From an uncultured Candidatus Saccharibacteria bacterium (GTDB taxonomy: Bacteria > Patescibacteriota > Minisyncoccia > Phycocordibacterales > UBA6899), in assembly GCA_964469335.1 (NCBI GenBank), contig CAYXYK010000001.1, forward strand, positions 235,976-299,975: a stretch of DNA of 64,000 nt. Direction: 5' to 3'. The position numbers were made by a program, and so were the translations under genes. Every line of letters starts with the position of its first letter. The stretch's first letter is position 1. Positions 46,527-64,000 of the stretch are shown piece after piece. The notes beneath the pieces were generated by a model. That model was given only the letters and a program-made list of their open reading frames with translations. It was not told the DNA's origin and did not search any database.

Positions 46527-46671
46527 TCGCACACGCGATACATCACCACAAGTTCTCTTTACGTTTTTGCACCATAGGCTACTCATTCCGCAAGATGAGT
46601 GGGCCTTATGTGCATGATGTAGACACTTCATTCCGGAGTGTGTGCGTGACTATCCCAACCCAAACCCAACC

Positions 46672-47292
46672 ATGAAATTCCTATTAGCAACCAAGCAGGA
46701 GATGACGCAGTACTTCGCCGAAGACGGCAAGTGCATCGCGGCAACTCTTCTCTCTGCAGGCCCGATCACCGTGACCGCCCTCCGAACAAAGGAGAAGGAT
46801 GGTTACGAGGCTGTTCAGGTCGGCTTCGGCACTCAACTTCCGAAGCGCGTCAACAAGGCGCAGCAGGGTGCACTCAAGGAGCTCGGTTCCTTCCGCTACA
46901 TGCGCGAATACCGCCCGAAGAGTGGCGCAGTCGACATCAAAGTCGGCGACAAAGTGACCGTCGAGGCATTCGCCCCCGGCGAAGACATCACCGTGACCGG
47001 CACCTCAAAGGGTAAAGGTTTCCAGGGTGTCGTGAAGCGTCACGGTTTCCACGGCGGACCTCGTTCACACGGTCAGAAGCATTCTGAGCGTGAACCAGGA
47101 TCCATCGGTGCGACCGGACCTCAGCGCGTCATCCCCGGTACTCGCATGGCAGGGCGCATGGGCTCCGACACCATTACGGTGAAGGGACTCAAAGTGCTCG
47201 CCGTCGATACTACAAACAATCTTCTTCTCGTGTCGGGAGCGATCCCGGGTCGTCGCGGGACATTGATCGAGATCAAGGCAACTAACGCATAA
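46672..47292 (+). CDS. rplC: 50S ribosomal protein L3
   Basis: start trimmed to MKFLLATKQEMTQ; GKGFQGVVKRHGF motif. Confidence 0.9.
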   Translation: MKFLLATKQEMTQYFAEDGKCIAATLLSAGPITVTALRTKEKDGYEAVQVGFGTQLPKRVNKAQQGALKELGSFRYMREYRPKSGAVDIKVGDKVTVEAFAPGEDITVTGTSKGKGFQGVVKRHGFHGGPRSHGQKHSEREPGSIGATGPQRVIPGTRMAGRMGSDTITVKGLKVLAVDTTNNLLLVSGAIPGRRGTLIEIKATNA

Positions 47293-47296
47293 TTGT

Positions 47297-48016
47297 ATGA
47301 CAACGAAAACTACAACCGCTAAGAAGCCTGTGAATCTTGAAGCAACTGTCTACACGACGGAAGGCAAGAAGTCAGGCTCAGTGACACTTTCAGAGAAAGT
47401 ATTCGGAGCAAAATGGAATGCAGATCTCGTTCACCAGGTGGTGGTCGCGATGCAAGCCAATGCGCGTCAGCCGATCGCGCACACCAAGGACCGTTCAGAG
47501 GTCCGCGGAGGTGGACGCAAACCTTGGGCACAGAAGGGAACCGGCCGTGCTCGTCACGGATCAAGCCGCTCGCCGATCTGGCGTCACGGTGGTATCACCC
47601 ATGGCCCTCGCAACGATCGTGATTTCTCTCAAAAACTCAACCGCAAGCAGAAGGTCGCCGCGCTCTACACCGTACTTTCCAAGAAGTGGAAGGAAGGCGA
47701 GATCCTCTTTGTCTCATCGGTCGCTCTCAAGGCTCCGAAGACCAAAGATGCGCGCACCATGCTCACGAACCTCGGTTCGATCGGTGGATTCGAGAAGCTC
47801 GCAGATCGCCGCAACAATGCAATGTACATGATCCTTCCTTCGGCAGATGCCAATGTGAAGAAGTCATTCCAGAACATGGGAAATGTACTCGTCGGAACAC
47901 TCAGCACACTCAATCCGGTCGATGTGCTGTCATACAAGTATCTCGTTCTTGCTGCTCCTGAGGAGGCCGTGAAGGCACTCGAAGCGAAGAGCGCGAAGAA
48001 AGAAGTCACCGCATAA
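47297..48016 (+). CDS. rplD: 50S ribosomal protein L4
   Basis: GGGRKPWAQKGTGRARHGS motif. Confidence 0.9.
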   Translation: MTTKTTTAKKPVNLEATVYTTEGKKSGSVTLSEKVFGAKWNADLVHQVVVAMQANARQPIAHTKDRSEVRGGGRKPWAQKGTGRARHGSSRSPIWRHGGITHGPRNDRDFSQKLNRKQKVAALYTVLSKKWKEGEILFVSSVALKAPKTKDARTMLTNLGSIGGFEKLADRRNNAMYMILPSADANVKKSFQNMGNVLVGTLSTLNPVDVLSYKYLVLAAPEEAVKALEAKSAKKEVTA

Positions 48017-48020
48017 TCCT

Positions 48021-48428
48021 ATGGCTATATTCAAGAAGACCACTGCGAAAGCAGCGTCAAAACCAAAGACAGAGAAAGTAGCGAAGGATGTCGTGGTCGC
48101 TGAGGTAGTAAAGGAAGTAAAAATCTCGAAGGCAGGCAAAGGCCTCCTCCTCGAGCAGGTGCTCCTCAATCCTCATGTCACCGAGAAGGCGTCAGACCTC
48201 TCCGAAAAGGGAGTATACGCATTCAACGTCAATCTTCGTGCCAACAAGGACCAGGTTACCCGCGCCGTGAAGCACTTTTTCAAAGTGACTCCGGTGAAGG
48301 TCGCCATGATCGTCAACAAGCCGAAGTACTCGCGCAACCCGCGTACCAACCGCGTACAGGTCAAGAAGGCCGCAATCAAGAAGGCACTTGTATACCTTAA
48401 GAAGGGCGATAAGATCGAGTTCGTGTAA
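48021..48428 (+). CDS. rplW: 50S ribosomal protein L23 with ~40-aa Lys/Ala-rich N-terminal extension
   Basis: core LLNPHVTEKASDLSEKGVYAFNV. Confidence 0.9.
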   Translation: MAIFKKTTAKAASKPKTEKVAKDVVVAEVVKEVKISKAGKGLLLEQVLLNPHVTEKASDLSEKGVYAFNVNLRANKDQVTRAVKHFFKVTPVKVAMIVNKPKYSRNPRTNRVQVKKAAIKKALVYLKKGDKIEFV

Positions 48429-48440
48429 ACGAAAAAACAT

Positions 48441-49286
48441 ATGAAATCATTCAAACCGTTAACTCCGTCACTGCGCAACACGATCCTCACACCCTACAAG
48501 CAGCTCCTCTCCGGTGACTCGAAAAAGAAGCCGAAGAATCTGATGAAGGGTCGCTCGTCGACCGGTGGCCGCAACAACCAGGGACGCATCACCATGCGTC
48601 ACATGGGAGGCGGCAACAAGAAAGCACTCCGCGTCGTCGACTTCAAGTTCGACAAGCGCGATGTGCCGGGAACTGTAGAGGCTGTCCAGTATGACCCCTT
48701 GCGCACCGCATTCGTCGCCCTCGTCGTCTACAAGGATGGAGAGCGCCGCTATATGGTCGCACAGAAGGGCATGAAGGCAGGCGACACATTTATCGTCTCT
48801 GAGAAGGCAACCCTTGATAAGTTCAACCGCACACAACTCAAGAAGATTCCGGTCGGTACATTCGTATCGAACGTCGAGGTCCAACCTGAGGGAGGTGCGA
48901 AGCTCGCTCGTGCGGCAGGAAACTTCATCGAAGTGATCGCCAACGACTTGGGTTACTCATTCCTCAAGATGCCGTCGTCAGAGGTCCGCAAGGTCTCCGA
49001 GAACTGCTGGGCAACCATCGGTGAGGTCTCGAACGATCAGCACAAGCTCCGCAACGAAGGTAAGGCAGGCCGCAACCGCTGGAAGGGCATCCGCCCGCAT
49101 GTCCGCGGTTCTGCGATGAACCCTGTAGATCACCCGCACGGAGGTGGTGAAGGTCGCATGGGACGTGGTCTACGCCGCGCCAAGACTAAGTGGGGTAAAC
49201 CTTCAGGCAAGGGCCAGAAGACCCGCTCGCCGAAGAAGTACTCGAACGTACACATTGTGTCGCGTCGCAAGGTCGGGAAGAAGTAA
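48441..49286 (+). CDS. rplB: 50S ribosomal protein L2
   Basis: GGGNKKALRVVDFKFDK, HPHGGGEG motifs; the usual rpsS-rplV-rpsC continuation is absent downstream. Confidence 0.95.
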   Translation: MKSFKPLTPSLRNTILTPYKQLLSGDSKKKPKNLMKGRSSTGGRNNQGRITMRHMGGGNKKALRVVDFKFDKRDVPGTVEAVQYDPLRTAFVALVVYKDGERRYMVAQKGMKAGDTFIVSEKATLDKFNRTQLKKIPVGTFVSNVEVQPEGGAKLARAAGNFIEVIANDLGYSFLKMPSSEVRKVSENCWATIGEVSNDQHKLRNEGKAGRNRWKGIRPHVRGSAMNPVDHPHGGGEGRMGRGLRRAKTKWGKPSGKGQKTRSPKKYSNVHIVSRRKVGKK

Positions 49287-49297
49287 ATTTTCTTACC

Positions 49298-49330
49298 AAA
49301 CAAAAACCGCTGAAAAGCGGTTTTTGTTTT
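49298..49330. terminator. bidirectional terminator directly after rplB
   Basis: AAACAAAAACCGCTGAAAAGCGGTTTTTGTTTT. Confidence 0.65.
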
Positions 49331-49345
49331 GCCGAGAAAAGAAAT

Positions 49346-49981
49346 TTACAACTGCTTCAAGATGAGTGCTTTGAGGGATTCGGGGGAGAGGTCGGAGTGG
49401 GTGATGCGGAGGAGGGGGAAGTGGGCGGAGAGTAGAATGCGTTCGACTTCCTCGTCGCGCTCTGTGCGGTCTTCGCGCTCATGAGTTGCGTCGTCGAGTT
49501 CGATCACAAGTTTCGGATTGACCCAGACTTTGTCGCAGAGGAGGAAGTCGACAGACTTCTGATTGATATGGCGCATCGCAGCATTCCAGTTTTGACCTTT
49601 GATTTTCCAGTCGATGAAGGTGCTGATGTGCACTTGCGGGAAAATGTAATATTGGTCTCCGGCCGCTTGGTTGAGCGCGTTGAATGCATCATGCTCCGCT
49701 TTCGTCATCACGAACTGCTTAGTCTCGTAGGAGTAGAGTGATTTCGCCATCTCTCCGCTGCTGTCGGCATAATTCCAGGCGCCCCAGATGAATTCGATCA
49801 GTGGAACGATAATGACGGTAAAGAAATTGCGTTTGCCGTTCCACAGAGTCTTATAATGCAGATATTTCTTGCGCAGGATCAAGAATAATACCGTTCCGAT
49901 GATCAAGAAGAACGCAAGAGCGCCGAGTAGCACCAGTCCGACGATCTCTAGCGCAGTTGTGACGGCATGTGATATGTCCAT
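49346..49981 (-). CDS. membrane-anchored protein with DUF559/DUF2726-like PD-(D/E)xK (Vsr-fold) nuclease-like domain
   Basis: N-terminal TM (LEIVGLVLLGALAFFLIIGTVLFLIL); motif SVDFLLCDKVWVNPKLVIELDDATHERED resembles the D...(I/V)E(L/V)DG..H signature of these families. Confidence 0.55.
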   Translation of the reverse strand: MDISHAVTTALEIVGLVLLGALAFFLIIGTVLFLILRKKYLHYKTLWNGKRNFFTVIIVPLIEFIWGAWNYADSSGEMAKSLYSYETKQFVMTKAEHDAFNALNQAAGDQYYIFPQVHISTFIDWKIKGQNWNAAMRHINQKSVDFLLCDKVWVNPKLVIELDDATHEREDRTERDEEVERILLSAHFPLLRITHSDLSPESLKALILKQL

Positions 49982-50075
49982 ACGTGAAGCATAGCAAAGG
50001 CGGGGGTTTGTACAAATGTTCGAACCGTTTCAAGGGAACGGTTCGAACGCCGGGTTACTATGCTATGCTTACTCC

Positions 50076-50384
50076 ATGACACACGAAGGGAATGAGGGAG
50101 TTCCGACTGGGAAAGAGGAGGTGATCGAGGCGCTCTTGCGTGACCCAGAGAACCTTGCTCCACTCCATGAGTACATGGCGGCACGAGAGGCTGCGTGCAG
50201 GAATGGGGCGGATAATCTCCGGCTCACGCTTGATCTCCTTGATATCTATATTGCAGGAGGTGAAGCGTTCCGTGATGCGGCATGGGAGACACTTGATGCG
50301 GCGTTCGATCAGGCAGAAGGCGAAGCCGATGACACAATTATGGCTGAGCTCCGCTTGCGACAGGCGAAATTGCAGGGTGAATAA
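50076..50384 (+). CDS. small acidic hypothetical protein
   Basis: ORF track (start uncertain: 50016 or 50076). Confidence 0.35.
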   Translation: MTHEGNEGVPTGKEEVIEALLRDPENLAPLHEYMAAREAACRNGADNLRLTLDLLDIYIAGGEAFRDAAWETLDAAFDQAEGEADDTIMAELRLRQAKLQGE

Positions 50385-50417
50385 AAACGCACCCCGCGAC
50401 GCGATGCGTGCGGGGTG
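50384..50417 (-). terminator. palindromic terminator, copy 1 of a repeated element (AAAACGCACCCCGCGACGCGATGCGTGCGGGGTG)
   Basis: hairpin + T-run on minus strand, follows 3' end of gene 50430-50792. Confidence 0.6.
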
Positions 50418-50429
50418 ATGTTGTGAAAG

Positions 50430-50792
50430 TCAGCCGAAGGTGACCTGAAAGCGGAACTCCACTTGCGAGTTGCGGACATCCGCCTTGATGGTGACGATGT
50501 CTGCCCATGCCTTCGCGAGTCCGTCGACCATGCTCCGCACCTTGCGACCGGAGGTGAGGCCGTACTCGCCGAGCGAGTAGGTACCGATGTGGCGTCCGTA
50601 AGTGAACAAGTTGTCAATCAAGTCGACATGTTCGAAGAACTCGTTCCAGTCCGGCGGAGCAGCTGCCCTGAGTTCAGCCTTGCGGGGAGCATCGTTCTTG
50701 GCAATTGATGCCAGTTCTTGTTGGAATCGCTCGAGCGAACCTGCGCGGCCGCAGATCGATGCGGCGATGCAGCCGCGGTAGAGGTGGGTCAT
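50430..50792 (-). CDS. hypothetical protein (120 aa)
   Basis: start trimmed to MTHLYRG preceded by AAGGAG RBS; no family recognised. Confidence 0.45.
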   Translation of the reverse strand: MTHLYRGCIAASICGRAGSLERFQQELASIAKNDAPRKAELRAAAPPDWNEFFEHVDLIDNLFTYGRHIGTYSLGEYGLTSGRKVRSMVDGLAKAWADIVTIKADVRNSQVEFRFQVTFG

Positions 50793-50814
50793 TGCTTCTC
50801 CTTGAATTTGAAGA

Positions 50815-51270
50815 TCAGGGTGAGGCCCGCTTGCGAGGACGGACGTTGGGAGCGTTCTCGCCGCAATAGACCTCCGTTGCCGATCCTTCGCGCTTTGCGA
50901 ACAGTTCGAAGAACAGGATGTCCTGACCGTTGTCGCCGATGGTGACGGTGACGCGGTAGCCGGTCCAGCCATGCTTTTCGACGCCGATGATGTCAGCAAA
51001 AAGTGCCATCAGCTGTGCGTCGTTGTTCCTCTCGTTTCGCACCCAGTCGGTGAGATGGCGGTCGCCGTCCTCGCCGGTGTGTTGCATGAGGATGCTGCGC
51101 CACTGGTCGAGGTCGTGGTCCATCGCGCGGTCGCTGTAGCGCGAGGCGCGTCCCTCATCGTCTTCGTAGTCGAGAGGGAACTGGAACTGCCGAAGCAGCA
51201 TGTGGTTGGCATCCCCACGCGAGCCGAGGCGGCTGAAGTCGTGGGGTTCTGCGGGGTACATTCGTGCCAT
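50815..51270 (-). CDS. hypothetical protein (151 aa)
   Basis: ORF track; stop lies 22 bp upstream of next gene start; no family recognised. Confidence 0.45.
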   Translation of the reverse strand: MARMYPAEPHDFSRLGSRGDANHMLLRQFQFPLDYEDDEGRASRYSDRAMDHDLDQWRSILMQHTGEDGDRHLTDWVRNERNNDAQLMALFADIIGVEKHGWTGYRVTVTIGDNGQDILFFELFAKREGSATEVYCGENAPNVRPRKRASP

Positions 51271-51361
51271 GTCGGGCCTCCGTTGTCGGTTGTTTCCGTT
51301 TTGTATTCTGCCTTAACTTTTGGTTTTGTCAATACCATATTGTGCCAGTATACGTTCACAG

Positions 51362-51398
51362 AAAAAACGCACCCCGCGACGCGTATGCGTGCGGGGTG
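51362..51398 (-). terminator. palindromic terminator, copy 2 (AAAAACGCACCCCGCGACGCGTATGCGTGCGGGGTG)
   Basis: near-identical to copy 1; follows 3' end of gene 51404-51868. Confidence 0.6.
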
Positions 51399-51403
51399 TG
51401 GGT

Positions 51404-51868
51404 CTAGTGTCTCCAGTTGAGGACACGACCGCGGAAGGTATCCCTGGTCCTTCCGGTAAAGAGTTCGATGTGGCGGGAAGCGATGGTGAAGGTGAGTCCG
51501 AGTAGCGAGAAGCAGAGGACCGTGCGGTGGGTGATCCTGCCAAAATATGAGATCGTATGCCGCTCAGTGAAACCGAGTTGGTACATCGGTGCATATTCGA
51601 TCGCGACGCTCGTGAGGTCGACACGTGAGACGTGCTGAATAGCGATGACACCCTCGTGTTGTCGCCAGAGATTGAATTGCCCGACACGCACGACGGCATC
51701 GTCGAGCCATAGGTTCTCGAGTCGCCTTGCTTTTCTTCGTTCACGACGATATTTGCTGGCGACTTTTCTCCCGGCGAATGCGGCAATGATCTGCGCTCCT
51801 GCTTCGGTGTCCGCACCTTCGCTCTCGATCATGCGGACGACGGCACTATTCATCAGCATCAGGTTCAT
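51404..51868 (-). CDS. hypothetical protein (154 aa)
   Basis: ORF track; no family recognised. Confidence 0.4.
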   Translation of the reverse strand: MNLMLMNSAVVRMIESEGADTEAGAQIIAAFAGRKVASKYRRERRKARRLENLWLDDAVVRVGQFNLWRQHEGVIAIQHVSRVDLTSVAIEYAPMYQLGFTERHTISYFGRITHRTVLCFSLLGLTFTIASRHIELFTGRTRDTFRGRVLNWRH

Positions 51869-51986
51869 GGGAACTCCCTGTAAAGTTCAGCTGTGCTCAC
51901 CTTACCACCCATAAAAAGGTCCGCAACTCAGGTGACTCGCCATGTTGTGTACGGTATGCTAGCCTCAAGTCAGAAAGGAGCTCGGC

Positions 51987-52220
51987 ATGAAAATGGGATT
52001 ACACACCGAAAAGGGAAGATTCGTCTTCAGTGCAGGCAAGAGTCAAAATGTCGACGACGGCCTGCGAAGAATATCATCACCGAGTTCGATACTCGGTCTT
52101 GCGGTACTTGCGCAGCAGCACACTACCGCGCAGGAGTTCGTACTTTCGTCGGGGGAGAAGTTCGAGTGCCCGTCAAAAGAACATGTGCTCGCACTTGCCA
52201 TCCGCATGATCTATGCTTGA
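51987..52220 (+). CDS. small hypothetical protein (77 aa)
   Basis: AAGGAG 6 nt upstream of ATG 51987. Confidence 0.4.
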   Translation: MKMGLHTEKGRFVFSAGKSQNVDDGLRRISSPSSILGLAVLAQQHTTAQEFVLSSGEKFECPSKEHVLALAIRMIYA

Positions 52221-52279
52221 CGCAACCCACTGCAAGCATAGGATAGAAATGTTCCGTTCAACCACCGAAGGAGACCGAC

Positions 52280-52459
52280 ATGCCGCACGCAGTTGCCAGT
52301 GTGAAGGAAGAACGCCAGCTCGCGTTCGAGAGGGCGAAGGAGGGAATTGACCCCGCAATCGTCGATCGCATCATGAAGGGACTCCCGGTCCCAGGCGACT
52401 CGTCCGGCCGACTGCTCGTCCTGCGCCAAGCCTGGGCCGCATATCGCGACTGCCTGTAG
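52280..52459 (+). CDS. small hypothetical protein (59 aa, below ORF-track cutoff)
   Basis: manual translation MPHAVASVKEERQLAFERAKEGIDPAIVDRIMKGLPVPGDSSGRLLVLRQAWAAYRDCL; GGAG RBS; terminator CACCCGC...GCGGGTG + T8 at 52460-52505. Confidence 0.4.
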   Translation: MPHAVASVKEERQLAFERAKEGIDPAIVDRIMKGLPVPGDSSGRLLVLRQAWAAYRDCL

Positions 52460-52565
52460 TCGCTGCAGCACCCGCCTCCTCGAGAGAGCGGGTGTGTTTT
52501 TTTTGTATAGATAACAGCATGACCCCGTGTGGGGGCATGCTGTTATCTGCTCTTCACTATATTTC

Positions 52566-52754
52566 CTACGGACGCATGCTGTCGGTGAGTGCGCGGCGTC
52601 GCTCAGAGATCTCCTTAGCACGCTTCTTGAGCCTTTCCCCGTAACCGGTCGCTCTCCCCAGCTCTTTGTCCAAAAGGAGATACCTGTGTTCTTCGCTCAC
52701 TCGTTCGAAAGCGCCACCGTCTTCTGCATTACTTGTGATGATACTCTTTGTCAT
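52566..52754 (-). CDS. small charged protein, paralog 1 of a 3-member tandem family
   Basis: MTKSIITSNAEDGGAFERVSEEHRYLLLDKELGRATGYGERLKKRAKEISERRRALTDSMRP; conserved leader TATTATCATTCATACACCCACAGT directly precedes the ATG. Confidence 0.45.
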   Translation of the reverse strand: MTKSIITSNAEDGGAFERVSEEHRYLLLDKELGRATGYGERLKKRAKEISERRRALTDSMRP

Positions 52755-53020
52755 ACTGTGGGTGTATGAATGATAATATCGAGCATACAACAGTGATGAT
52801 GAAAAAATTGTGAAACGGTTCAGGCAAGTAGGCGTTTCGCGAGTGTTCGTGCGTCGCGTCCTTGCTTCGCTGCACTTTCTGCGCGTTCGGCTCGAGCATG
52901 TTCGTCCTTCTCAGATTGCTGTCTCTTCCCGATCGCTATTTGTGCTTCACGCTCTTCATGGTCATGTGTTTCCCGGAGCAATTGCTCAGATGTTTTTGTG
53001 GCAAGCATACTTGGGAGCTA

Positions 53021-53183
53021 GGGACGCAAACTCAGCGTCAATGCCTTCCGTCGGTGTTCTATCTCTTTTGCATGCTCCTTCATCTGTATCTGATAACTCT
53101 TGGTGAACTCAAGACTACGTTCAGATAGTCTCCGCATCTGTTCTCTCTGTTCTTCTCCCCCCGAACTCTTTTTTATATACATA
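53021..53183 (-). CDS. small charged protein, paralog 2 (54 aa, below ORF-track cutoff)
   Basis: manual translation MYIKKSSGGEEQREQMRRLSERSLEFTKSYQIQMKEHAKEIEHRRKALTLSLRP; same leader sequence upstream; C-terminus HAKEIEHRRKALTLSLRP parallels paralog 1. Confidence 0.4.
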
Positions 53184-53260
53184 CCTGTGGGTGTATGAAT
53201 GAATAATATCCGGACATGATACCGAAGCTTGGTGAAAGAAAAATGAAATGCACGCTGCGT

Positions 53261-53617
53261 TCACTTGGTGTGTCCTGCCGTACGCCGGTGTTCCAATTCC
53301 TTCTCATGTTCACTCACATGCATCTGGTGGGTCAGTTCCGCCTCTTCCGCACGTTCCTTATGTATCCGAGCGCTCTCTTTCAGTAGCTCGTCATGCTCTT
53401 TTTCGAATCCCTCATCCCGCTCCTCCTTAGCTCGGCTGGTCGCGCTTCTCTGCTCGCTGTCCGCTTCCGCTGTCCGCTCTTTCTTCTCCCGACCTTCGTT
53501 CTCTTTTGCTCTGCGACTATCTCCGCGTGCAACCTCTTCTTCTCGGGCAACTCGTGCGCGACTTTTCTCGGCGAGTAGCCGTTCTTCAGTCGCTCTTACT
53601 TCGGTTTTTGTAGACAT
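53261..53617 (-). CDS. charged K/E/R-rich protein, paralog 3 (118 aa)
   Basis: C-terminus EHEKELEHRRTAGHTK related to paralogs 1/2; upstream ATTATTCATATCC resembles the shared leader. Confidence 0.45.
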   Translation of the reverse strand: MSTKTEVRATEERLLAEKSRARVAREEEVARGDSRRAKENEGREKKERTAEADSEQRSATSRAKEERDEGFEKEHDELLKESARIHKERAEEAELTHQMHVSEHEKELEHRRTAGHTK

Positions 53618-53628
53618 GGATATGAATA

Positions 53629-53976
53629 ATGGATAATGACCCCATCATAGCGAGCCTGAGTGAGGAGAAAGTGAGTGAAGCTTCTTCATACCTTGTGCTT
53701 TCTGTCGCGAGGCGTAGCATGAGTGGGTCCTTCAAGGAGAAGACCATGTTGCTCTTTTCACGACTCATCGTGCATTTGCTCCCGGCTCCGAACATCATGA
53801 CCGCCCCGAATGCTCTATACCCTCGTCTCTACGACTCTTGCATGAGCGAAGTGGTGCGCTGGCACCGGTCGTGCCTCGCCCGCCTCATCTTCGAGTATCC
53901 GCTCGAGGAAGCCGACCGTGCGATTTCCGCGCATAGATTCCCGGATATGGAAGAGCGGCACCTCTCGCTCTCGTGA
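53629..53976 (+). CDS. hypothetical protein
   Basis: ORF track; terminator GCTCTTC-TC-GAAGAGC + T-run at 53985-54020. Confidence 0.4.
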   Translation: MDNDPIIASLSEEKVSEASSYLVLSVARRSMSGSFKEKTMLLFSRLIVHLLPAPNIMTAPNALYPRLYDSCMSEVVRWHRSCLARLIFEYPLEEADRAISAHRFPDMEERHLSLS

Positions 53977-54039
53977 ACCGAAATGACAAAGAGCTCTTCT
54001 CGAAGAGCCCTTTTTGTTTCATTCGTCTTATGAAGAGAT

Positions 54040-54072
54040 AAAACGAACCCCGCACTCATGTGGTGCGGGGTG
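54040..54072 (-). terminator. palindromic terminator, copy 3 (variant: AAAACGAACCCCGCACTCATGTGGTGCGGGGTG)
   Basis: same AAAACG-ACCCCGC...GCGGGGTG architecture; follows 3' end of gene 54085-54285. Confidence 0.55.
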
Positions 54073-54084
54073 TATGGCTCCAGA

Positions 54085-54285
54085 TCAGCCGATCTTGGTG
54101 CCTTCTGGGCTGTAGACGTGGGCGATGATGCCTTGGCTGAGGAGGTCCTTCGCGAGCGTACGAGCCGCTTCTTCCGTTTCTTTGGTGGGGACACAGAGTC
54201 TCCCTTCTCCGTCCTCATCCCTGTATGCGACAGAGAATTGTCCAGGATTGGTCACTGCATCTTTCGGGGGTTCGGTCCAAGCCAT
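54085..54285 (-). CDS. small hypothetical protein (66 aa)
   Basis: ORF track. Confidence 0.4.
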   Translation of the reverse strand: MAWTEPPKDAVTNPGQFSVAYRDEDGEGRLCVPTKETEEAARTLAKDLLSQGIIAHVYSPEGTKIG

Positions 54286-54447
54286 GCCGGGTTCTCCTTG
54301 TAAAATCCTTTTTCATTTTCTTCGAATTTCACTCCGTGTCAATGTGAAACTTCCCGCCGCGGCGTTACAGGGGAATCATTCTTGAGTTATTCCCTTCGTC
54401 ATGTTTGGATGTACAAGGATTATTCATGTTCACCTGAAGGGGAAATC

Positions 54448-54657
54448 ATGGGATATGATCTCAATCAGTCGTCGGTCCTGAGTCGTCGGCTGTCTCAAAA
54501 GTCGACCGTGCAGCGAGACATCAGTCCATATGACCTTTCTGCGGTCGCCGCTGCAGCTAGAGCACTTGCGGCGCGGCCCGATCCGCCGCCTCAGCTTGAG
54601 AGTCTCTATGATCTCGACACCATCGCCCGCATCGATCGCCATTTTGGTCGCCGCTAG
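54448..54657 (+). CDS. small hypothetical protein
   Basis: start trimmed to MGYDLNQ; terminator GGGAGC-ATCC-GCTCCC + T-run at 54650-54690. Confidence 0.35.
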   Translation: MGYDLNQSSVLSRRLSQKSTVQRDISPYDLSAVAAAARALAARPDPPPQLESLYDLDTIARIDRHFGRR

Positions 54658-54767
54658 AAAAGGGAGCATCCGCTCCCTTTATTTCTTGCACGAGTATTAT
54701 TGACATAAATCAATAATACCGTATAATATACAAAGCTGTATCCCTTGGATCCCTGAAAGGAATCACC

Positions 54768-55145
54768 ATGAAAGTCGTTCTTGTTGCTGAGGATCATCCG
54801 GTCGTCCGGGTCACCCTTGTCGCCCTGCTCGAGACATTCGGCATCTTTACGGTCGTTGCTGTCGAGAACGGTAAGAAAGCGTTGGAGTACCTCGAAACAC
54901 TCCCGCCGCATGTCACGAAGACCCTCCTCATCACCGACTGGGACATGCCGGAGATGACCGGCATCGAGCTGGTGCAGGCTATCCGTGCCGATGCTCGCCT
55001 CATGAGGACGCCGATCATCATGACCAGCAGCCGGACGCCGGAAGAGATCGCCTCTGCCCTTTCGCTAGGGGTGGATGCCTTCATCGACAAGCCTGCCCCG
55101 ACCGATCAGCTCGAAGACCTCGTTCATCGCTATCTCGATTCGTGA
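54768..55145 (+). CDS. orphan single-domain response regulator (receiver only)
   Basis: VLVAEDHPVVR ... LLITDWDMPEMTGIEL ... FIDKP; terminator CACGCGCCC-TCG-GGCGCGTG + T-run at 55153-55185. Confidence 0.8.
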   Translation: MKVVLVAEDHPVVRVTLVALLETFGIFTVVAVENGKKALEYLETLPPHVTKTLLITDWDMPEMTGIELVQAIRADARLMRTPIIMTSSRTPEEIASALSLGVDAFIDKPAPTDQLEDLVHRYLDS

Positions 55146-55243
55146 ATCTCTGACACGCGCCCTCGGGCGCGTGTTCCTTTTTATATTGACAGTACCCACC
55201 GAAAAGCACACTATAAAAATGGATCAATTACTTTGGAGGCTCT

Positions 55244-55609
55244 ATGAGCAATATCAGGATACTCATCGTCGACGATGACAAAGTGTTCCGCGATGCCGCT
55301 GCGAAGTGGCTCGCAAGAGAAGGCTTCGAAGACGTCAGCGTTCTTGGGAATGCGATATCCGCCCTCGAGCGTATCGCCGTCGATGGCGACTATGACCTCC
55401 TCATCACCGACTTCAACATGCCGGAGATGACCGGAGTGCAACTGATCGAACGAGTGCGCTCGCTCGGACGGATCGAACCTCCCAAGTTCATCGTAATGAG
55501 TGCCGGGAAGAATTCCGAGGTCGCACTTCGTGGCGGTGCAGATCGGTTCTTCTCCAAGCTGACACCACTCGACGAGCTGTCTATGGCAATCGCGGAGTTG
55601 TTCCCATGA
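55244..55609 (+). CDS. orphan single-domain response regulator (receiver only)
   Basis: ILIVDDDKVFRD ... LLITDFNMPEMTGVQL ... FFSKL; terminator at 55625-55665. Confidence 0.8.
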   Translation: MSNIRILIVDDDKVFRDAAAKWLAREGFEDVSVLGNAISALERIAVDGDYDLLITDFNMPEMTGVQLIERVRSLGRIEPPKFIVMSAGKNSEVALRGGADRFFSKLTPLDELSMAIAELFP

Positions 55610-55653
55610 TACTTGTCGGAAAAGTGAAAGGCCCCCTTCTCAGGAAGGGGGCC

Positions 55654-56016
55654 TCATTGTTTCTCCTTCGTGTCGAACAGAAGGATTTGTCGTTGTGAAG
55701 GTGGAGGATCGCCGTGCTCTTCGAGCAGCGCGTAGAGGTGTGAAAGGTGAGCGATGCGCGTGAGCGGGTCCAAGATGTAGAGACTTGAGAACCGGTCGTA
55801 GGCGCGAATACGGCGGAGGACGAGGGACCGCGCATGGCCGGAGTCACCAACCCCGAGGGTCGGGTTCGCTCTTCGCCAAGCAAGTAATTCATCGAAGCTC
55901 AGACACTCCTCATTGAAAACACTGTTCTCTCGGTAGCTCCGTTCAAACAGCAATGCTACGCCAACGAGCATCGAAAGTGAGATCAGGCTCTGTATCGCGA
56001 CTGCCGGATGATCCAT
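55654..56016 (-). CDS. small hypothetical membrane protein
   Basis: ORF track; one TM helix. Confidence 0.4.
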   Translation of the reverse strand: MDHPAVAIQSLISLSMLVGVALLFERSYRENSVFNEECLSFDELLAWRRANPTLGVGDSGHARSLVLRRIRAYDRFSSLYILDPLTRIAHLSHLYALLEEHGDPPPSQRQILLFDTKEKQ

Positions 56017-56091
56017 GGGCTTCTCCAGGTTGAGGGAAGGGCGTCTGCTTATAGTTATGCCAAATTAGGGTATTTTGGCAAGGGGACGAGT

Positions 56092-56919
56092 ATGTCACGC
56101 GGGAGAAACGAGAGTGTTACAATGATCGCAATGAAGAAAACACTCAGCATCGGCGTGGGACTCCTCACTCTTATTATTATTCTCCTTATTGGCAAATGGG
56201 CGATGATTGGTCGCGATGCCGTGAGTGTAACCCCCCCGACTCCTTTGCCTGAGTCATCGCTCGCTTCATACAAAAATGATACGTTCGGTGTTTCTTTCTC
56301 ATATCCGAAAGCGATCACTCCGGAGACAGAGTTCAAGTCGTTCTACCACCTCAGTTCCGACTGGCGTGTGGGCGAGTCAGATGACGTGAGCGGAACACCT
56401 CTCGTCGCGATCCCGCTCTATCGCATCGATAATGGGGGAGTATATAAGAGCTACCCGATGTATTACTCCGCCGAGCTCCGCGTGGGAGTAAGTACGAGTA
56501 GTGTTGCCCTTGCCGAGTGTCTCACTGGAGGAAAGGAAAACAATCTCGAGTTAGGTGAAGGTCCGACCACCACGGTGATCAATGGCATCGAGTGGAAGAA
56601 AGTCCCCGTCGGCTCTGGTGGTATGATGCAGTTTCTATACGGGAACAGTTATCGCTTGATTCGAGGTGACACATGTATCACCGTCGAGACACTCAAGACG
56701 GGAAGTAACTATCGTGACACACCTTCACCCGAAGATATCTCCGATGTCGATCTCGAGTCGCACTATACTGCCCTCGATACCATCCTTGCAACTCTGCACG
56801 TCGATTTCACCGGAGTGCACTGCGGAGGCAATATCCGCACTGCACCGACATGTCCAAACGGATATCATTGCCAGCTCGGGACAATCCCAGACGTTGGCGG
56901 TAGTTGTGTCGCCGACTGA
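56092..56919 (+). CDS. hypothetical secreted/membrane-anchored protein with Cys-rich C-terminus
   Basis: start chosen at MSRGRNE after GGGGA RBS (alternatives 56119/56128); TM/signal TLSIGVGLLTLIIILLIG; C-terminal CGGNIRTAPTCPNGYHCQLGTIPDVGGSC. Confidence 0.5.
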   Translation: MSRGRNESVTMIAMKKTLSIGVGLLTLIIILLIGKWAMIGRDAVSVTPPTPLPESSLASYKNDTFGVSFSYPKAITPETEFKSFYHLSSDWRVGESDDVSGTPLVAIPLYRIDNGGVYKSYPMYYSAELRVGVSTSSVALAECLTGGKENNLELGEGPTTTVINGIEWKKVPVGSGGMMQFLYGNSYRLIRGDTCITVETLKTGSNYRDTPSPEDISDVDLESHYTALDTILATLHVDFTGVHCGGNIRTAPTCPNGYHCQLGTIPDVGGSCVAD

Positions 56920-56928
56920 ACCAAGATC

Positions 56929-57138
56929 ATGAAACATTTGAATGAACAGACAGAAGCAATAGCTCGTTCGATCAGCGATGCATCGCAGATGAAAGGGATA
57001 CAGTGGAATCGCGTCACCTGGTATTCATGGTGGCTTGCTATCATTCTTTTTTGTGTGGTCATTCCCGCACTCTCGTTCTATATCGGTGTGCAGTATGAGA
57101 TCACCAAAGAAGCTGCCCGCGAAGCACATGTAAGGTAA
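56929..57138 (+). CDS. small membrane protein (69 aa)
   Basis: ORF track; WYSWWLAIILFCVVIPALSFYIG helix. Confidence 0.4.
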   Translation: MKHLNEQTEAIARSISDASQMKGIQWNRVTWYSWWLAIILFCVVIPALSFYIGVQYEITKEAAREAHVR

Positions 57139-57211
57139 CTTGCATGAACGTATTTCCCGAGTAGAGTATTGAAGGAATAATTTTGTACGTTCTCAATGAA
57201 GAGGAGCCACC

Positions 57212-57610
57212 ATGGAGAAACATTCTCAAGTGCTTTTGGTCACAAGGAACAGACATGCCCGCCAAGCACTGGCGAGAAGGGTGTCAGCGATCGGACATGA
57301 AGTCATCGACGTGCACAGTGCCGCCACCGCATTCGACCTGCTCGTCGGAAGAGCATGCAACCCCGTGAAACCGCAGTTCGCCCTCGTCATCGTCGAGCGG
57401 GATTCTGTCGAGATTCCCGCGATCAGTCTGGTCGACGAGATGCGTAGTGGGGATCGGACCAACGCCATCCCTGTTCTGATCGTCGCACAGCGATTGACCG
57501 ACAGTGATCAAGTGGCGGCACATCGACTCGGGCACTGCCGGGTCATCAAGCACAGCTCAGACGACCGGGTGCTCCGTGCCGGGATCGGTTCCCTCACCGG
57601 AGTGAGATGA
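57212..57610 (+). CDS. degenerate receiver-like domain protein (pseudo-receiver)
   Basis: GAGGAG RBS; receiver-like layout (VLLVTRNRHA ... ALVIVERDSV ... VLIVAQ) but the N-terminal acidic pair is replaced by TRN. Confidence 0.55.
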   Translation: MEKHSQVLLVTRNRHARQALARRVSAIGHEVIDVHSAATAFDLLVGRACNPVKPQFALVIVERDSVEIPAISLVDEMRSGDRTNAIPVLIVAQRLTDSDQVAAHRLGHCRVIKHSSDDRVLRAGIGSLTGVR

Positions 57611-57701
57611 ATGAATGGCCGCGTCTTTGGATGCGGTCATGTTTTTTATAAAAAAGAACCCCGAGCACATGATCGTGTCGGGGGGGGGTGAGAATCGGTA
57701 C

Positions 57702-57977
57702 TCATGCTGCCTCAGCGGTTGCGGGCAGGTGCTTCCTGCGGAGGTGCAGGTAGGTACGTGCCGGACATTTGCCACCCTCTCCGCATGGATGGCCACCCTG
57801 AGCGGAGAGCGAGAACTCGCGGATCGCTGCACTGCAGTCGCATTTGTCGTTCGCGACCAGAGGACAATCCTTGGCGTCGCTGTAGGGAGTTCCTCTCCCG
57901 GTATCCTCCATGAAGATCGAATAGAACGTTTCCCTTGTCACCGCCATGGGAGCAATATGTGTCGCTCGACGGGGCAT
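57702..57977 (-). CDS. small Cys-containing hypothetical protein
   Basis: AAGGAG RBS before ATG 57977; CPLVANDKCDC ... HPCGEGGKCP; terminator at 57650-57695; competing overlapping ORFs rejected. Confidence 0.35.
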   Translation of the reverse strand: MPRRATHIAPMAVTRETFYSIFMEDTGRGTPYSDAKDCPLVANDKCDCSAAIREFSLSAQGGHPCGEGGKCPARTYLHLRRKHLPATAEAA

Positions 57978-58124
57978 GATCATCTCCTTGAAATGAAAGG
58001 TACAGAAAAAAAGGCGCTACCAGCGGGTAGCGCCTTTCCAGGTTGAGACATGTGTCTTCACTGGGATTCATTCTCTTCCTTTCGCTGTGTTGTGTAAAGT
58101 GAGTAGTGTGGACAAGATGGTGGC

Positions 58125-58343
58125 TCAATGAGTGAGTTTTCCGGTGATGGCGGTCTGCTCTATGAGCTGGACTTCCTGTTCGGGTTGGATGACCACTTTC
58201 GTCGGACGGGAGATGATCTTTCCAGTGCTGTCACCTCCGCGCACCTCGTCCACTCTTCCTTCGAAGGTCTTCCGGAAGAGCGGCGAACGGCCAGGTGACA
58301 ACACCGCAAAGATGTCACCGGTGCTCAGGTCTTTGTATCGCAT
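58125..58343 (-). CDS. small hypothetical protein (72 aa)
   Basis: AAGGGAG RBS 6 nt before ATG 58343; terminator GGCGCTACC-AGC-GGGTAGCGCC at 58003-58040 downstream. Confidence 0.45.
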   Translation of the reverse strand: MRYKDLSTGDIFAVLSPGRSPLFRKTFEGRVDEVRGGDSTGKIISRPTKVVIQPEQEVQLIEQTAITGKLTH

Positions 58344-58468
58344 GGCACACTCCCTTAGGTTGGACTCGGCTCATCTTATTCAGAATGACGGGCTCGTCAA
58401 ATACCTGTTTCTTTTTGCTGATGTGCGGCGTTATAATTGCATACAACTTATTCCATTCATTTTCACCA

Positions 58469-59049
58469 TGAAAAAGACATTCATCGTCATCGCTATCATC
58501 CTTGTGCTCGCCCTCCTTCCGCTTCTCGGCACATATAATAGTATCGTCGCGCTGAATCAGGACACCGCGGCAAAATGGTCGCAAGTAGAGGGACAATACC
58601 AGCGTCGCATGGACCTCATTCCGAATTTGGTCGCTACCGTAAAGGGAGCTGCGAACTTCGAGCAGACGACACTTACTGCGGTGGTCGAGGCGCGTGCAAA
58701 AGCCACCCAAGTGACGGTCGATCCGAGCAAGCTCGACGCCGAAAGCATCGCAAAGTATCAGGCGGCACAGGGCGAACTTTCGAGTGCACTCGGAAAATTG
58801 CTGATGATCACCGAGAACTACCCGACGCTTACCGCGACCGAGAACTTCAAAGACCTGCAGTCGCAGATCGAAGGAACCGAGAACCGCATCGCGGTATCAC
58901 GAAAAGATTTCGGCGACTCGGTGCAAACCTATAACACGAAGGTTTCTCAGTTTCCGGGCAATATCGTCGCGAAACTTTTTGGCTTCGCCCCCAAGGCATA
59001 CTTTAAGGCAGACCAAAGCGCGGCAGCCGCTCCTTCTGTTGCATTCTAA
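58469..59049 (+). CDS. lemA: LemA-family membrane protein
   Basis: start trimmed to MKKTFIVIAIIL; LemA-like NSIVALNQDTAAKWSQVEGQYQRRMDLIPNLV region. Confidence 0.8.
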
Positions 59050-59061
59050 ATCGATCACGAT

Positions 59062-59943
59062 ATGAAGCGCATATTTCTTCTCGTTGCGCTTGGTCTCGTC
59101 TTCGTACCGGGGACGCTGTTCGCCTATACTTCCCCGGGTGCTCCAAGCGGATATGTGAATGATTTCGCTTCAGTCCTTACACAGGAAGAACGAACGACAC
59201 TCGAAGCAACGCTCAAAGATTTCCATCAAGAGTACGGTGGGGAAGTGGGCGTCGTCACCGTCCCAACACTCGGAGGTGATGCGATCGAGGATTATGCGAA
59301 TACATTATTCCGTGAATGGGGGATCGGACAGAAAGATAAGAACAACGGCGTATTGCTGGTCGTTGCGATTGAAGACAGGAGCCTACGCATCGAAGTTGGA
59401 TATGGGTACGAAGGCTCGCTCACTGATGCCCGCTCATCTGAGATCATCAGAAATGCGATTACTCCCTATTTCAAACAGAATGCATACGGGCTCGGCATCA
59501 TGACAGGAGTGAAGGACATCATCACGACGGTGACGACCGGAGAAGTCCCCGTCGAGCATCAAGATACTTCGGTCGGATTGCCTACCCAAGATACCCTCAC
59601 GACTTGGCTCTTTGTGCTCTTCGTCATATTTCCGTGGATCGCAAGCGTGTTCGGAAGAAGTAAATCGTGGTGGGCAGGCGGTATCGCCGGTGCCGCAGTC
59701 GGAAGCCTAGTCTCCGTTCTTTTTGGATTGGCATCGTGGGTGTATCCGGTCATCGTAGCTACGATCATCGGACTCATATTCGACCTGATCGTGTCGAGGG
59801 GGTACCGTAGCAGCGTCGCTTCAGGCTCCCGCCCACCATGGTGGACCGGGGGAGGCGGTTTTGGAGGAGGGAGTTCAAGTGGAGGGTTCGGAGGGTTTGG
59901 CGGAGGGTCGTCCGGTGGAGGTGGAGCGAGTGGACGTTGGTGA
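59062..59943 (+). CDS. TPM-domain (YgcG-like) protein with Gly-rich C-terminus
   Basis: signal peptide, TPM-like NGVLLVVAIEDRSLRIEVGYG region, TM, terminal GGGFGGGSSSGGFGGFGGG; usual LemA partner. Confidence 0.8.
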   Translation: MKRIFLLVALGLVFVPGTLFAYTSPGAPSGYVNDFASVLTQEERTTLEATLKDFHQEYGGEVGVVTVPTLGGDAIEDYANTLFREWGIGQKDKNNGVLLVVAIEDRSLRIEVGYGYEGSLTDARSSEIIRNAITPYFKQNAYGLGIMTGVKDIITTVTTGEVPVEHQDTSVGLPTQDTLTTWLFVLFVIFPWIASVFGRSKSWWAGGIAGAAVGSLVSVLFGLASWVYPVIVATIIGLIFDLIVSRGYRSSVASGSRPPWWTGGGGFGGGSSSGGFGGFGGGSSGGGGASGRW

Positions 59944-59944: not shown

Positions 59945-60898
59945 CTATCCGATCAACACCGAGCGCATCGATATACTCCCGTGCGCAATGCCTTCGACCG
60001 GAAAGCTCGGTCCTTCGTCTTCTTCCTCTAGCCCTAATATATAGAGCAGCGGCCAGTAGTGGTCCGGCGTCGGGATCGAAAGCGCAGCAGCATGTCCGAG
60101 CCCTTCGTAGTTCAAGAGTGTGGTGTGGTCATGTTTCAATATCAGGTCCTTCGCAGCATTGTCGAAATCCGCTGCCCATGCGAATTCTCTCGCACCCTCA
60201 TTGAAATCGATCATGCTGAGGTTGTGCACGATATTGCCGCTCCCAAGGATCAGCACTCCGCGTCTCCGCAGTATCGCGAGTTCTTTCGCGAGTGCATAGT
60301 GCTCTTTGTGTGAACGGGTCATGTCGATACTCATTTGAAACACCGGTATTTCGGCGGCGGGGTACATCCGATGCAGCACTATCCATGTGCCATGGTCGAT
60401 ACCCCAATCGATGTCAGGGCGGACTACGGTGCCAGTGACCGCCTCGCGGGTAGCATTCGCATAGACGGGTGATCCCGGGCATGGATAGTTGAGATCGTAG
60501 AGCTGTTTCGGGAAGCCCCAGAAATCATGGATCGTGCGTGGGTGTTCGGCTATATGCACCTCTGTCCCGCGAGTGAGCCAATGTGCGGAGATCGACAGGA
60601 TTGCTACTGGCTTCGGTAGCGATTTCCCGAGGGTTTCCCATCCTAACGAAAAGGCGTTGTCTTCGATCCCGTTCATTGGAGAGCCATGCCCAACAAATAA
60701 AGCCGGCATACGCTTTGTTTTCGGGAGGTCACTCAGTTTTGCCAATAGTCCAAGGCCAGTCATCCGTCCATTGTCTCGCCCGATCGGACCAGAGTCAATT
60801 TTCGCCCCCATCCCCAAAGGGGTGGATAACCCCATATCGATGTGAGCTGTAGCGTATATAATGATAAGTACGAGTATTTCGCACCTTGCGCGCTGCAT
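59945..60898 (-). CDS. LigB-type extradiol ring-cleavage dioxygenase class III (YgiD-like) with N-terminal signal-like extension
   Basis: MPALFVGHGSPMN start of catalytic domain, HWLTRG, LILGSGNIVHNL motifs. Confidence 0.75.
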   Translation of the reverse strand: MQRARCEILVLIIIYATAHIDMGLSTPLGMGAKIDSGPIGRDNGRMTGLGLLAKLSDLPKTKRMPALFVGHGSPMNGIEDNAFSLGWETLGKSLPKPVAILSISAHWLTRGTEVHIAEHPRTIHDFWGFPKQLYDLNYPCPGSPVYANATREAVTGTVVRPDIDWGIDHGTWIVLHRMYPAAEIPVFQMSIDMTRSHKEHYALAKELAILRRRGVLILGSGNIVHNLSMIDFNEGAREFAWAADFDNAAKDLILKHDHTTLLNYEGLGHAAALSIPTPDHYWPLLYILGLEEEDEGPSFPVEGIAHGSISMRSVLIG

Positions 60899-62808: not shown

Positions 62809-62924
62809 GGAAATAATGTAGCAATTTATTCATTCTCTGCAATAGAACCACTTCGAGAACAGCTTTTACCTGAATATGCTGTCTAGGGATGGCTCTGCGT
62901 ACTGTGGTAGAATTTTGCCATTGT

Positions 62925-63932: not shown

Positions 63933-64000
63933 GTTTATCAACAGGTATTCCCCAGTCTTGTCCACAGTGACCATTTAGAGCCATAATTTGACTTTCTTGG

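Follow-up and report, generated by a model that had tools for sequence, protein, structure and literature searches.

Few bacterial gene arrangements are held to be as stable as the S10-spc-alpha cluster of ribosomal protein genes. In Gammaproteobacteria and Bacilli, breaks have been described between operons of this cluster, and they are the subject of the Brandis model (PMC8046335). Once a few genes have invaded a cluster boundary, selection for adjacency weakens and the flanking sides move away from each other; the inserts are mostly ordinary cellular genes (PMC8046335, PMC6735719). The present report concerns a break located inside the S10 operon itself, between rplB and rpsS, in a stretch of 64,000 nucleotides (nt) from an uncultured Candidatus Saccharibacteria bacterium (contig CAYXYK010000001.1, positions 235,976 to 299,975); this whole stretch is referred to as the window. 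The analysis places its source among the Lloydbacteria-type Paceibacterota (Parcubacteria, candidate phyla radiation). The first 9 kilobases (kb) downstream of rplB, here called the block, had been regarded in a preliminary description, made from the sequence alone, as an acquired accessory island within an ultra-conserved locus and as a candidate for an undescribed defence, toxin-immunity or signalling system.

Like the Brandis-type breaks, this locus is an opened boundary whose gap holds ordinary genes rather than mobile elements. Those breaks lie mostly between operons, with one inside rpoBC, whereas the present one lies within an operon, is common to the whole sampled clade, comes with a dedicated (predicted) rpsS promoter and leader, and opens a spacer of up to ~15 kb. 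Hypervariable or flexible chromosomal regions are known in small, streamlined genomes, and the locus resembles these in its fixed site, orphan genes, gene gain and loss, recombination tracts between strains and lack of integrases. Unlike them, it is situated between the two halves of a ribosomal operon, and its content is mostly vertical within the genus and not cassette-swapped. The explanation favoured here, at a probability of about 0.75, is that the S10 operon has been split into two transcription units throughout the clade, the spacer being a vertically inherited and fast-evolving home of lineage-specific genes and not a mobile island or a recognisable multi-gene system. A clade-wide split inside S10 is a clear counter-example to the reputed stability of the cluster.

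The rplB-rpsS junction in the window and its relatives

The first of the two proposed transcription units, rpsJ-rplC-rplD-rplW-rplB (46167-49286, forward strand), has the gene order given in the preliminary description, and each gene matches its Pfam family far above the curated cut-off.

44934-46133, tuf, upstream of rpsJ (Pfam)
46167-46526, forward strand, rpsJ (S10)
46642-47292, forward strand, rplC (L3)
47297-48016, forward strand, rplD (L4)
48021-48428, forward strand, rplW (L23)
48441-49286, forward strand, rplB (L2)
49297-49334, both strands, predicted bidirectional intrinsic terminator between rplB (forward) and a DUF2726 gene (reverse)
63987-64000, forward strand, start of the predicted rpsS promoter, cut by the end of the window (-35 box TTGACT at 63987-63992)

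The strong terminator reported after rplB is borne out by folding: a perfect palindrome, AAAACCGCUGAAAAGCGGUUUU, followed by a U run, begins 11 nt past the rplB stop codon and has a calculated energy of -22.4 kcal/mol (z -6.3 against shuffled sequences). None of rpsS, rplV, rpsC, rplP and rplN was detected in the whole window (tblastn, best E 0.28), in agreement with the earlier statement that rpsS-rplV-rpsC are absent from it. The further claim that the operon is cut after rplB does not hold. The S10 operon is interrupted and not cut off, because an overlapping contig (L091; related genomes and contigs are designated by L numbers), identical to window positions 62639-64000 over 1362 nt with 0 mismatches, continues with rpsS-rplV-rpsC-rplP-rpmC and then the start of one unannotated gene. 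This contig was reached via a 347-amino-acid (aa) beta-lactamase-like protein at the end of the window (62889-63932) that is encoded on both contigs. In window coordinates rpsS would start at ~64135, i.e. 135 nt past the window end. The standard S10 gene order is thereby kept, with rpsJ to rplB in the window and rpsS to rpmC on L091, and where the canonical operon has a gap of tens of bases between rplB and rpsS there are here 14.85 kb, of which the 9-kb block is the rplB-proximal first part.

The junction was compared in 80 relatives, with one genome per species and with RplB proteins 58-95% identical to that of the window; they include Lloydbacteria, Kaiserbacteria, Campbellbacteria, Nomurabacteria, other Paceibacterota, Parcubacteria and similar lineages. 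In 51 of these 80 species rpsS is found within 10 kb downstream of rplB, at distances of 61-9471 nt (median 1172 nt), and the gap exceeds 400 nt in 42 of the 51. At least 13 further species, including one with a complete Campbellbacteria chromosome (CP011215), have rpsS more than 10 kb away. Among the closest relatives (RplB at least 78% identical) all measurable gaps are at least 7 kb. The rpsS-rplV, rplV-rpsC and rpsC-rplP gaps of the same loci, which served as an internal control, never exceed 400 nt. The rplB-rpsS junction is not conserved at all in this clade. Elsewhere the gap is occupied by genes for diacylglycerol kinase (dagK, 11 loci), DUF3298 proteins (10), Fpg glycosylase (8) and OMP decarboxylase (pyrF, 5), and also for an SBF transporter, superoxide dismutase (sodA), MgsA and a trypsin-like protease, all of which are ordinary cellular genes. 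No description of an rplB-rpsS split in the candidate phyla radiation was found in the literature searched.

Predicted transcription signals flank the junction on both sides. A terminator-like site (hairpin plus T run) follows rplB in 53 of the 80 relatives, against 51 of 810 random pieces (6%). On the other side, a sigma70-type motif, TTGACN-N16-19-TANNNT, is present within 150 nt upstream of rpsS at 49 of 52 loci, compared with a rate of 2% (21 of 1040) in random 150-mers. At about 40 loci the motif stops 32-39 nt short of the ATG, and right behind it comes a hairpin of 5-7 base pairs (bp), the position of which is kept while the stem varies by lineage (CCCGC/GCGGG, GAGCUC/GAGCUC, GGCUC/GAGCU, UCGCGC/GCGCGG). 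Even in L040, where rplB and rpsS are only ~80 nt apart, promoter and hairpin are fitted into the gap. The window's own promoter is complete on L091 (1350-1496), where TTGACT-N17-TAGTAT is followed by a 118-nt leader. Whereas the rpsS leaders of other Paceibacterota measure 32-39 nt and carry a short hairpin of lineage-specific sequence, those of the window's lineage (also L128, L134, L012, L024 and L026) measure 100-120 nt and contain an invariant 27-nt element, TACGCCGTGGGAGGATCAGGGGCGTT. The invariant leader hairpin, ACGCCGUGGGAGGAUCAGGGGCGU, has the stem and loop ACGCC-GUGGGAGGAUCAGG-GGCGU, and the loop holds a Shine-Dalgarno-like GGAGGA ~75 nt before the start codon. The element has no match in Rfam; leaders of this type may be regulatory.

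These signals, a terminator after rplB and a promoter before rpsS, argue against a single transcript across the S10 genes and suggest that rpsJ-rplB and rpsS-rplV-rpsC-rplP... are two independent transcription units. The first would stop at the strong bidirectional terminator and the second would restart 14.85 kb downstream from its own sigma70-type promoter and leader. The split, seen in nearly all of the 80 sampled relatives, would predate the window's lineage. Adjacency would no longer be selected because nothing would need to be transcribed across the junction, as in the Brandis model (PMC8046335), and the released junction would then take insertions and rearrangements, each lineage filling the gap differently. 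The rplB-rpsS spacer is a plastic inter-operon zone, and its lineage-specific filling offers a natural test of co-transcription as the force that holds such clusters together. There is also a practical side, in that ribosomal-protein phylogenies often expect their markers on one scaffold; a variable spacer of up to ~15 kb would be an expected assembly break point.

Gene content and inheritance of the spacer

The block comprises ~22 small genes, designated g2 to g22 where they have no other name. About 19 of the 22 are without a family match, and the six or more unknown genes first reported on the reverse strand have become twelve of unknown function. Ratios of nonsynonymous to synonymous substitution (dN/dS) are given where available.

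49346-49981, reverse strand, DUF2726 protein (Vsr/DUF559-like, restriction-endonuclease fold) with an N-terminal hydrophobic anchor, 211 aa (PF10881, E 4.9e-29)
50016-50384, forward strand, g2, acidic helical protein, divergent from the DUF2726 gene (dN/dS 0.09)
50386-50417, predicted hairpin terminator copy 1, serving g2 and g3 (about -21 to -24 kcal/mol on either strand)
50430-50792, reverse strand, g3, 120-aa orphan, fastest-evolving gene of the block (dN/dS 0.20-0.37)
50815-51270, reverse strand, g4, 151-aa orphan, present in the window's species and absent from L128
51366-51398, predicted hairpin terminator copy 2, after g5
51404-51868, reverse strand, g5, 154-aa orphan (dN/dS 0.17)
51987-52220, forward strand, g6, small gene (dN/dS 0.19)
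52280-52459, forward strand, g7, small gene (dN/dS 0.15; homologs in L013, L025 and L134)
52566-53617, reverse strand, g8, g10 and g11, tandem small charged (basic) paralogs with g9 between them, in strain-variable patch B
52566-52790, 53018-53182 and 53261-53617, reverse strand, the three paralog open reading frames (ORFs), with a common C-terminal tail
53629-53976, forward strand, g12 (dN/dS 0.25)
54047-54071, predicted hairpin terminator copy 3, looser (-17.7 kcal/mol)
54085-54285, reverse strand, g13 (dN/dS 0.12)
54382-54657, forward strand, g14 (no nucleotide match in L128; 35% protein identity there)
54768-55145, forward strand, RR1, CheY-type single-domain receiver with its own terminator (PF00072, E 1e-21, 77.5 bits, cut-off 30.2)
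55244-55609, forward strand, RR2, CheY-type single-domain receiver with its own terminator (PF00072, E 4e-18, 65.9 bits, cut-off 30.2)
55654-56016, reverse strand, g17, 120 aa, N-terminal hydrophobic segment (dN/dS 0.11; conserved in L128 and L131)
56125-56919, forward strand, g18, membrane-anchored, with a PsbP/Mog1/LpqN-like domain and a Cys-rich C-terminus (dN/dS 0.12)
56929-57138, forward strand, g19, 69 aa (dN/dS 0.04; 76-88% identity in L023, L128 and L131)
57212-57610, forward strand, RR3, degenerate receiver-like protein (dN/dS 0.12)
57702-57983, reverse strand, g21 (dN/dS 0.09; conserved in L128, L131, L134 and L012)
58125-58343, reverse strand, g22 (dN/dS 0.18; conserved in L128, L131 and L134)

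L128 is a sister species at 82-88% DNA identity, in which a single 16.9-kb contig carries rplD-rplW-rplB, a 13.6-kb spacer and rpsS-rplV-rpsC. Its spacer has the same genes in the same order, and differs by the lack of g4 and of the beta-lactamase-like gene and by one extra small ORF. The preliminary description had itself named the same genes at the same position in a relative as an observation that would speak against an acquired island, and as regards gene order this is what L128 carries at its rplB-rpsS position. L131, L134, L012 and L013 have nested subsets of the spacer genes, and L134 and L012 also span the gap. Every gene of the source annotation with a nucleotide match in L128 has a dN/dS of 0.04-0.25 between the two species, g4 and g14 being without a match. 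The block is taken to be vertically inherited because of this nested synteny and of the purifying dN/dS values.

By the same ratios, the small ORFs of the block are real genes under purifying selection, and the comparison between strains agrees with that to L128 on which ORFs are genes. When seven overlapping alternative-frame ORFs of more than 100 aa were tested, six had dN/dS values of 0.87-2.75 or frames broken by indels or stops. The one opposite g11, at 53265-53636, has a ratio of 0.15 and no stops and is not set apart from a gene by this test; g11 is preferred on account of its ratio of 0.07 and its paralogs. Alternative frames at 50430-50999 (an extension), 51313-51816, 51893-52246, 52211-52621, 52810-53106, 53829-54218, 55581-55892, 57615-58046 and 57712-58128 were rejected, their ratios being near or above 1 or their frames broken by indels or stops in relatives. 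Most block genes (about a dozen to about twenty) appear to be genus-restricted orphans. For g4 no relative was found outside its own species among 5.8 billion proteins, and for g5 a single one, 80% identical, among 1.84 billion representative proteins, so that both seem to be without relatives beyond the genus-level lineage. The remaining small ORFs of the block gave no usable match in Pfam at E values up to 0.1.

The membrane-anchored nuclease-fold protein of the preliminary description is confirmed as a DUF2726/DUF559 protein of the PD-(D/E)xK superfamily, with 101.1 bits against PF10881 (cut-off 24.7) over profile positions 2-123 of 126, i.e. the full length. It shares with the DUF2726/Vsr/DUF559 branch of these nucleases (Steczkiewicz et al. 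2012, PMC3424549) a visible D...IELDD..H motif, and departs from it in its N-terminal membrane anchor, its fixed site beside rplB in several species and the lack of mobile elements nearby. In L014, L018, L022 and L026 the gene is the next one after rplB, on the opposite strand, and in L020 it is situated further downstream, with 54-63% identity across the five. Its dN/dS between the window and L128 is 0.08, and it falls in strain-variable patch A. The neighbouring g2 is predicted to fold as a small helical TPR-like bundle, without a PDB match at an E value below 0.75. A weak match of g2 to CATRA-N (E 0.0017) was below the cut-off and received no backing from the predicted structure, and the assignment was rejected.

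The tandem family of three small charged proteins is likewise confirmed by its common tail, K(E/K)xAKEIxxRRxALxxxxRP-like; dN/dS is 0.06-0.17 across g8 to g11 (g10 0.06, g11 0.07), and the family is also found in L012, L131 and L134. The palindromic terminator reported three times has a common CCCCGCAC/GUGCGGGG stem in all three hairpins, and copies 1 and 2 are 97% identical over 36 nt, the third being looser. The g4 segment between the two near-identical hairpins (50804-51288) is the part missing in L128. Terminator-like hairpins are about twice as frequent between 46 and 64 kb as in shuffled sequence (30 against 15.5 +/- 4.7), and many block genes have a terminator-like hairpin behind them, several of these being strong, which suggests that the spacer genes are mostly transcribed separately. 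A search with g18, the largest unknown protein of the block, gave a six-member family by which three further species were located.

The distal 5.7 kb of the spacer, with lemA, the TPM gene, ligB, queA and a candidate structured RNA of ~370 nt, is a more conserved backbone.

58360-59943, forward strand, lemA and a TPM-domain gene (PF04011, PF04536)
59945-60898, reverse strand, ligB, LigB-family dioxygenase gene (PF02900)
60920-61288, forward strand, candidate structured RNA, ~370 nt, ending in a terminator, no credible ORF
61331-61693, reverse strand, membrane protein gene
61756-62808, reverse strand, queA
62889-63932, forward strand, beta-lactamase-like gene (PF13354)

lemA and the TPM gene are inside the same spacer in L012, L013, L128, L131 and L134 as well, ligB is downstream of rplB in 11 related species, and queA stands before rpsS in L024, L026 and L128. 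The beta-lactamase-like gene (segment 62844-63949), just upstream of the rpsS promoter, is absent from L128, and its site in L012 and L013 shows fragments or partial matches only; it was recently gained or lost, at the spacer's distal edge.

The candidate RNA is 99% identical between the window and L128, at a place where the flanking ligB and membrane protein genes are 77% and 71% identical. It was found by nhmmer on the same strand inside the spacer of 9 related species, e.g. L012 (9227-9593), L013 (11262-11651), L016 (16416-16788), L024 (15066-15436), L025 (13956-14317), L026 (17969-18347) and L020 (19204-19681), and on 5 metagenome contigs. Compensatory changes affect 23 of 52 predicted pairs, the free-energy z score is -4.8, and invariant complementary blocks pair CAUCUUUCG with CGAAAGAUG and CUACAG with CUGUAG. 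A coding function is unlikely, the indels of the alignment not being multiples of three. Searches of Rfam gave nothing at the gathering score and only terminator-like fragments in E-value mode, and the stretch fits no tRNA model; RNase P RNA, tmRNA, 6S RNA and SRP RNA were considered and dropped after ARAGORN and Rfam, including its sensitive mode, gave nothing. A pattern scan of metagenomes returned 36 loci, of which 5 were true matches and the rest chance. The RNA appears to be confined to the Lloydbacteria-type lineage. Together with the leader element, this new RNA is of interest for follow-up.

Strain variation and competing explanations

The window strain and a second population of its species (L001) were compared over 20 kb. 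Identity is 99.5-100% in the background; in three divergent patches, all of them within the block, it is 78-94% or homology is lost.

48.75-50.95 kb, patch A, 3' end of rplB, DUF2726 gene, g2 and g3 (78-94% identical)
52.18-53.69 kb, patch B, 1.5 kb with three basic-protein paralogs against 385 bp with one copy
54.75-55.5 kb, patch C, RR1 and the start of RR2 (82-87% identical)

The divergence between strains in patches A and C equals that from the sister species. For RR1, the window is 88.4% identical to L001 and 89.9% to L128, and L001 and L128 share 83.6%, while g3 is 81% identical at the nucleotide level between strains whose background is 99.8%. The replacement of 52180-53693 by ~385 bp with one paralog copy is seen in L001 and L002. 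In patch A all other sampled populations have one allele, and one contig is a mosaic. Gene gain or loss between the sister species concerns g4 and the beta-lactamase-like gene. The old alleles at a few genes of the patches were either brought in by recombination or kept by selection.

Several points weigh against the favoured reading of a split operon with a vertically inherited spacer. The patches show alleles that were imported or long maintained, and parts of the block are exchanged horizontally among close relatives. For most block genes no relatives were detected outside the genus, which leaves room for a distant foreign origin of some. Codon usage of the block correlates with that of other core genes at r 0.84, below the value for random core subsets (0.93 +/- 0.02), although the ribosomal genes deviate equally. 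The promoters and terminators are sequence predictions, the sample consists of Paceibacterota only, so that the age and origin of the split are bounded solely from inside it, and the link of the receivers to cheA, discussed below, draws on family resemblance and a missing cheY.

The patches might alternatively mark a hot spot of conflict or host interaction, where alleles of DUF2726-g2-g3, the basic-protein array and RR1 are kept apart by diversifying or balancing selection, e.g. through contact with phage or host. The confinement of all three patches to the block, divergence as large as that between species, an RR1 closer to L128 than to the other population and the change from three copies to one of the small basic protein would all fit. 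The dN/dS values inside the patches (0.09-0.37), though, indicate purifying rather than positive selection. The sample comprises only two haplotypes and one mosaic, strains can be mixed in the consensus sequences of metagenomes, and such recombination tracts also arise neutrally. This explanation is unlikely. Equally doubtful is the larger proposal that the spacer is a dedicated variable locus and no neutral filler. Alleles older than the species would be maintained at DUF2726-g2-g3, RR1 and the basic-protein array because an episymbiotic cell would interact with phage or host through these genes, and the new ~370-nt RNA and the new ribosomal leader element would be further parts.

RR1, RR2, g17, g18, g19, RR3, g21, g22, lemA and the TPM gene could also be thought to form one signalling and envelope module. 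L128 and L131 keep their order, and L134 and L012 a reduced form of it, with g18 down to 47% identity; all members are under purifying selection, and receivers are mixed with membrane-anchored or envelope-type proteins. On the other hand, several members have a strong terminator of their own, the genes lie on both strands, g17, g19 and RR3 are missing from L134 and L012 in what look like independent losses, and the order is confined to one narrow lineage, for which shared ancestry alone predicts synteny. No known system has such a make-up, and a module of this kind is improbable.

The original proposal, a recently acquired foreign block after rplB with an undescribed defence or toxin-immunity system built round the DUF2726 nuclease, is very unlikely and is largely refuted by synteny. 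In its favour, DUF2726 proteins have a restriction-endonuclease fold and in some cases have mobile elements beside them or carry fused abortive-infection N-terminal domains (PMC3424549, PMC3710099); the window's protein was also the only one of the block to match PHROGs (phrog_14167, a phage family of unknown function), most of its neighbours are orphans, and DUF2726, g2 and g3 form the most strain-variable patch. Against it stand not only the conserved order in the sister species and the purifying selection on all tested genes, but also the presence of the DUF2726 gene beside rplB or in its region in five more distantly related species. DUF2726 and g2 do not co-occur beyond the two closest genomes, and g2 homologs in L013, L131 and L023 are all without DUF2726; around the nuclease no conserved multi-gene system is apparent. 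A search of 10 block proteins against PADLOC-DB 2.0 gave 0 matches. The block ORFs match no toxin or antitoxin family of Pfam, and neighbouring genes, which would have to be co-transcribed in a toxin-antitoxin system, are separated by a hairpin wherever one was mapped. The reported lack of an integrase or transposase is upheld, in that no Pfam family of integrases, recombinases or transposases matches any block ORF; no att-like or flanking repeat of more than 13 nt links the rplB junction to other parts of the spacer, and the tRNAs of the window are only at 699 and 8151.

Base composition does not set the block clearly apart. The block is richer in guanine and cytosine than the window as a whole (53.8% against 51.6%), as the preliminary description had judged by eye, but this is only 1.6 standard deviations above the mean (standard deviation 1.3% for this window size; 20th of 220), and the block is no higher than the flanking ribosomal genes, at 53-55%. 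Its tetranucleotide composition is not an outlier. Of the island as first proposed there remain its accessory character and gene turnover; its acquisition by an otherwise closed locus does not agree with a junction that is open clade-wide. The outcome for the block is deflationary, with no hidden defence system, and its orphan genes have gained standing as genes that, by their substitution patterns, are real and under selection. Finally, an assembly artefact joining rplB to unrelated sequence, for which nothing speaks beyond the unusual gene order, is excluded for practical purposes because the rplB junction recurs in 14 independently assembled contigs (JGI and Logan samples), and it recurs also in the related species L128, L134 and L012.

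Receivers, chemotaxis genes and the region upstream of tuf

The block had been credited with three orphan receivers. Two of them match the Response_reg family. The third, RR3, is without a Pfam match; it resembles receiver structures weakly (E 0.01) and has no acidic pair. At the DNA level RR3 still matches the phospho-acceptor stretch of RR1 and RR2 at 62%. Among solved structures, RR1 and RR2 are closest to CheY proteins (E about 1e-16 to 1e-12). Like CheY single-domain regulators, both are receiver-only proteins of ~120 aa with an acidic pocket, a phospho-acceptor Asp in DxxMPxM, and a conserved Thr/Ser and Lys. They differ from the usual CheY in several ways: the che operon is ~50 kb away, each gene has a terminator of its own, and RR1 varies between strains.

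Neither are these receivers clearly orphans, since the window contains a che operon without a cheY. It occupies 1005-5996 and consists, according to Pfam, of cheW (1005-1616), cheB, cheA (3160-4848), cheC/X and cheD. A regex search found no classical histidine-kinase boxes, CheA having come from Pfam. Because of their resemblance to the CheY family and of this che operon lacking cheY, RR1 and RR2 probably serve as the CheY proteins of the pathway of the cheA operon, for which a CheC/X phosphatase is present. Type IV pilus genes (a pilB-like ATPase and a pilC-like platform protein) are located at 17459-20560, and no flagellar genes were seen in the window.

Upstream of tuf, at 42050-43617, there are three consecutive highly charged, coiled-coil-like ORFs of 102, 160 and 228 aa. 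They have no match in Pfam and are probably real genes, as the changes between strains are mostly synonymous.

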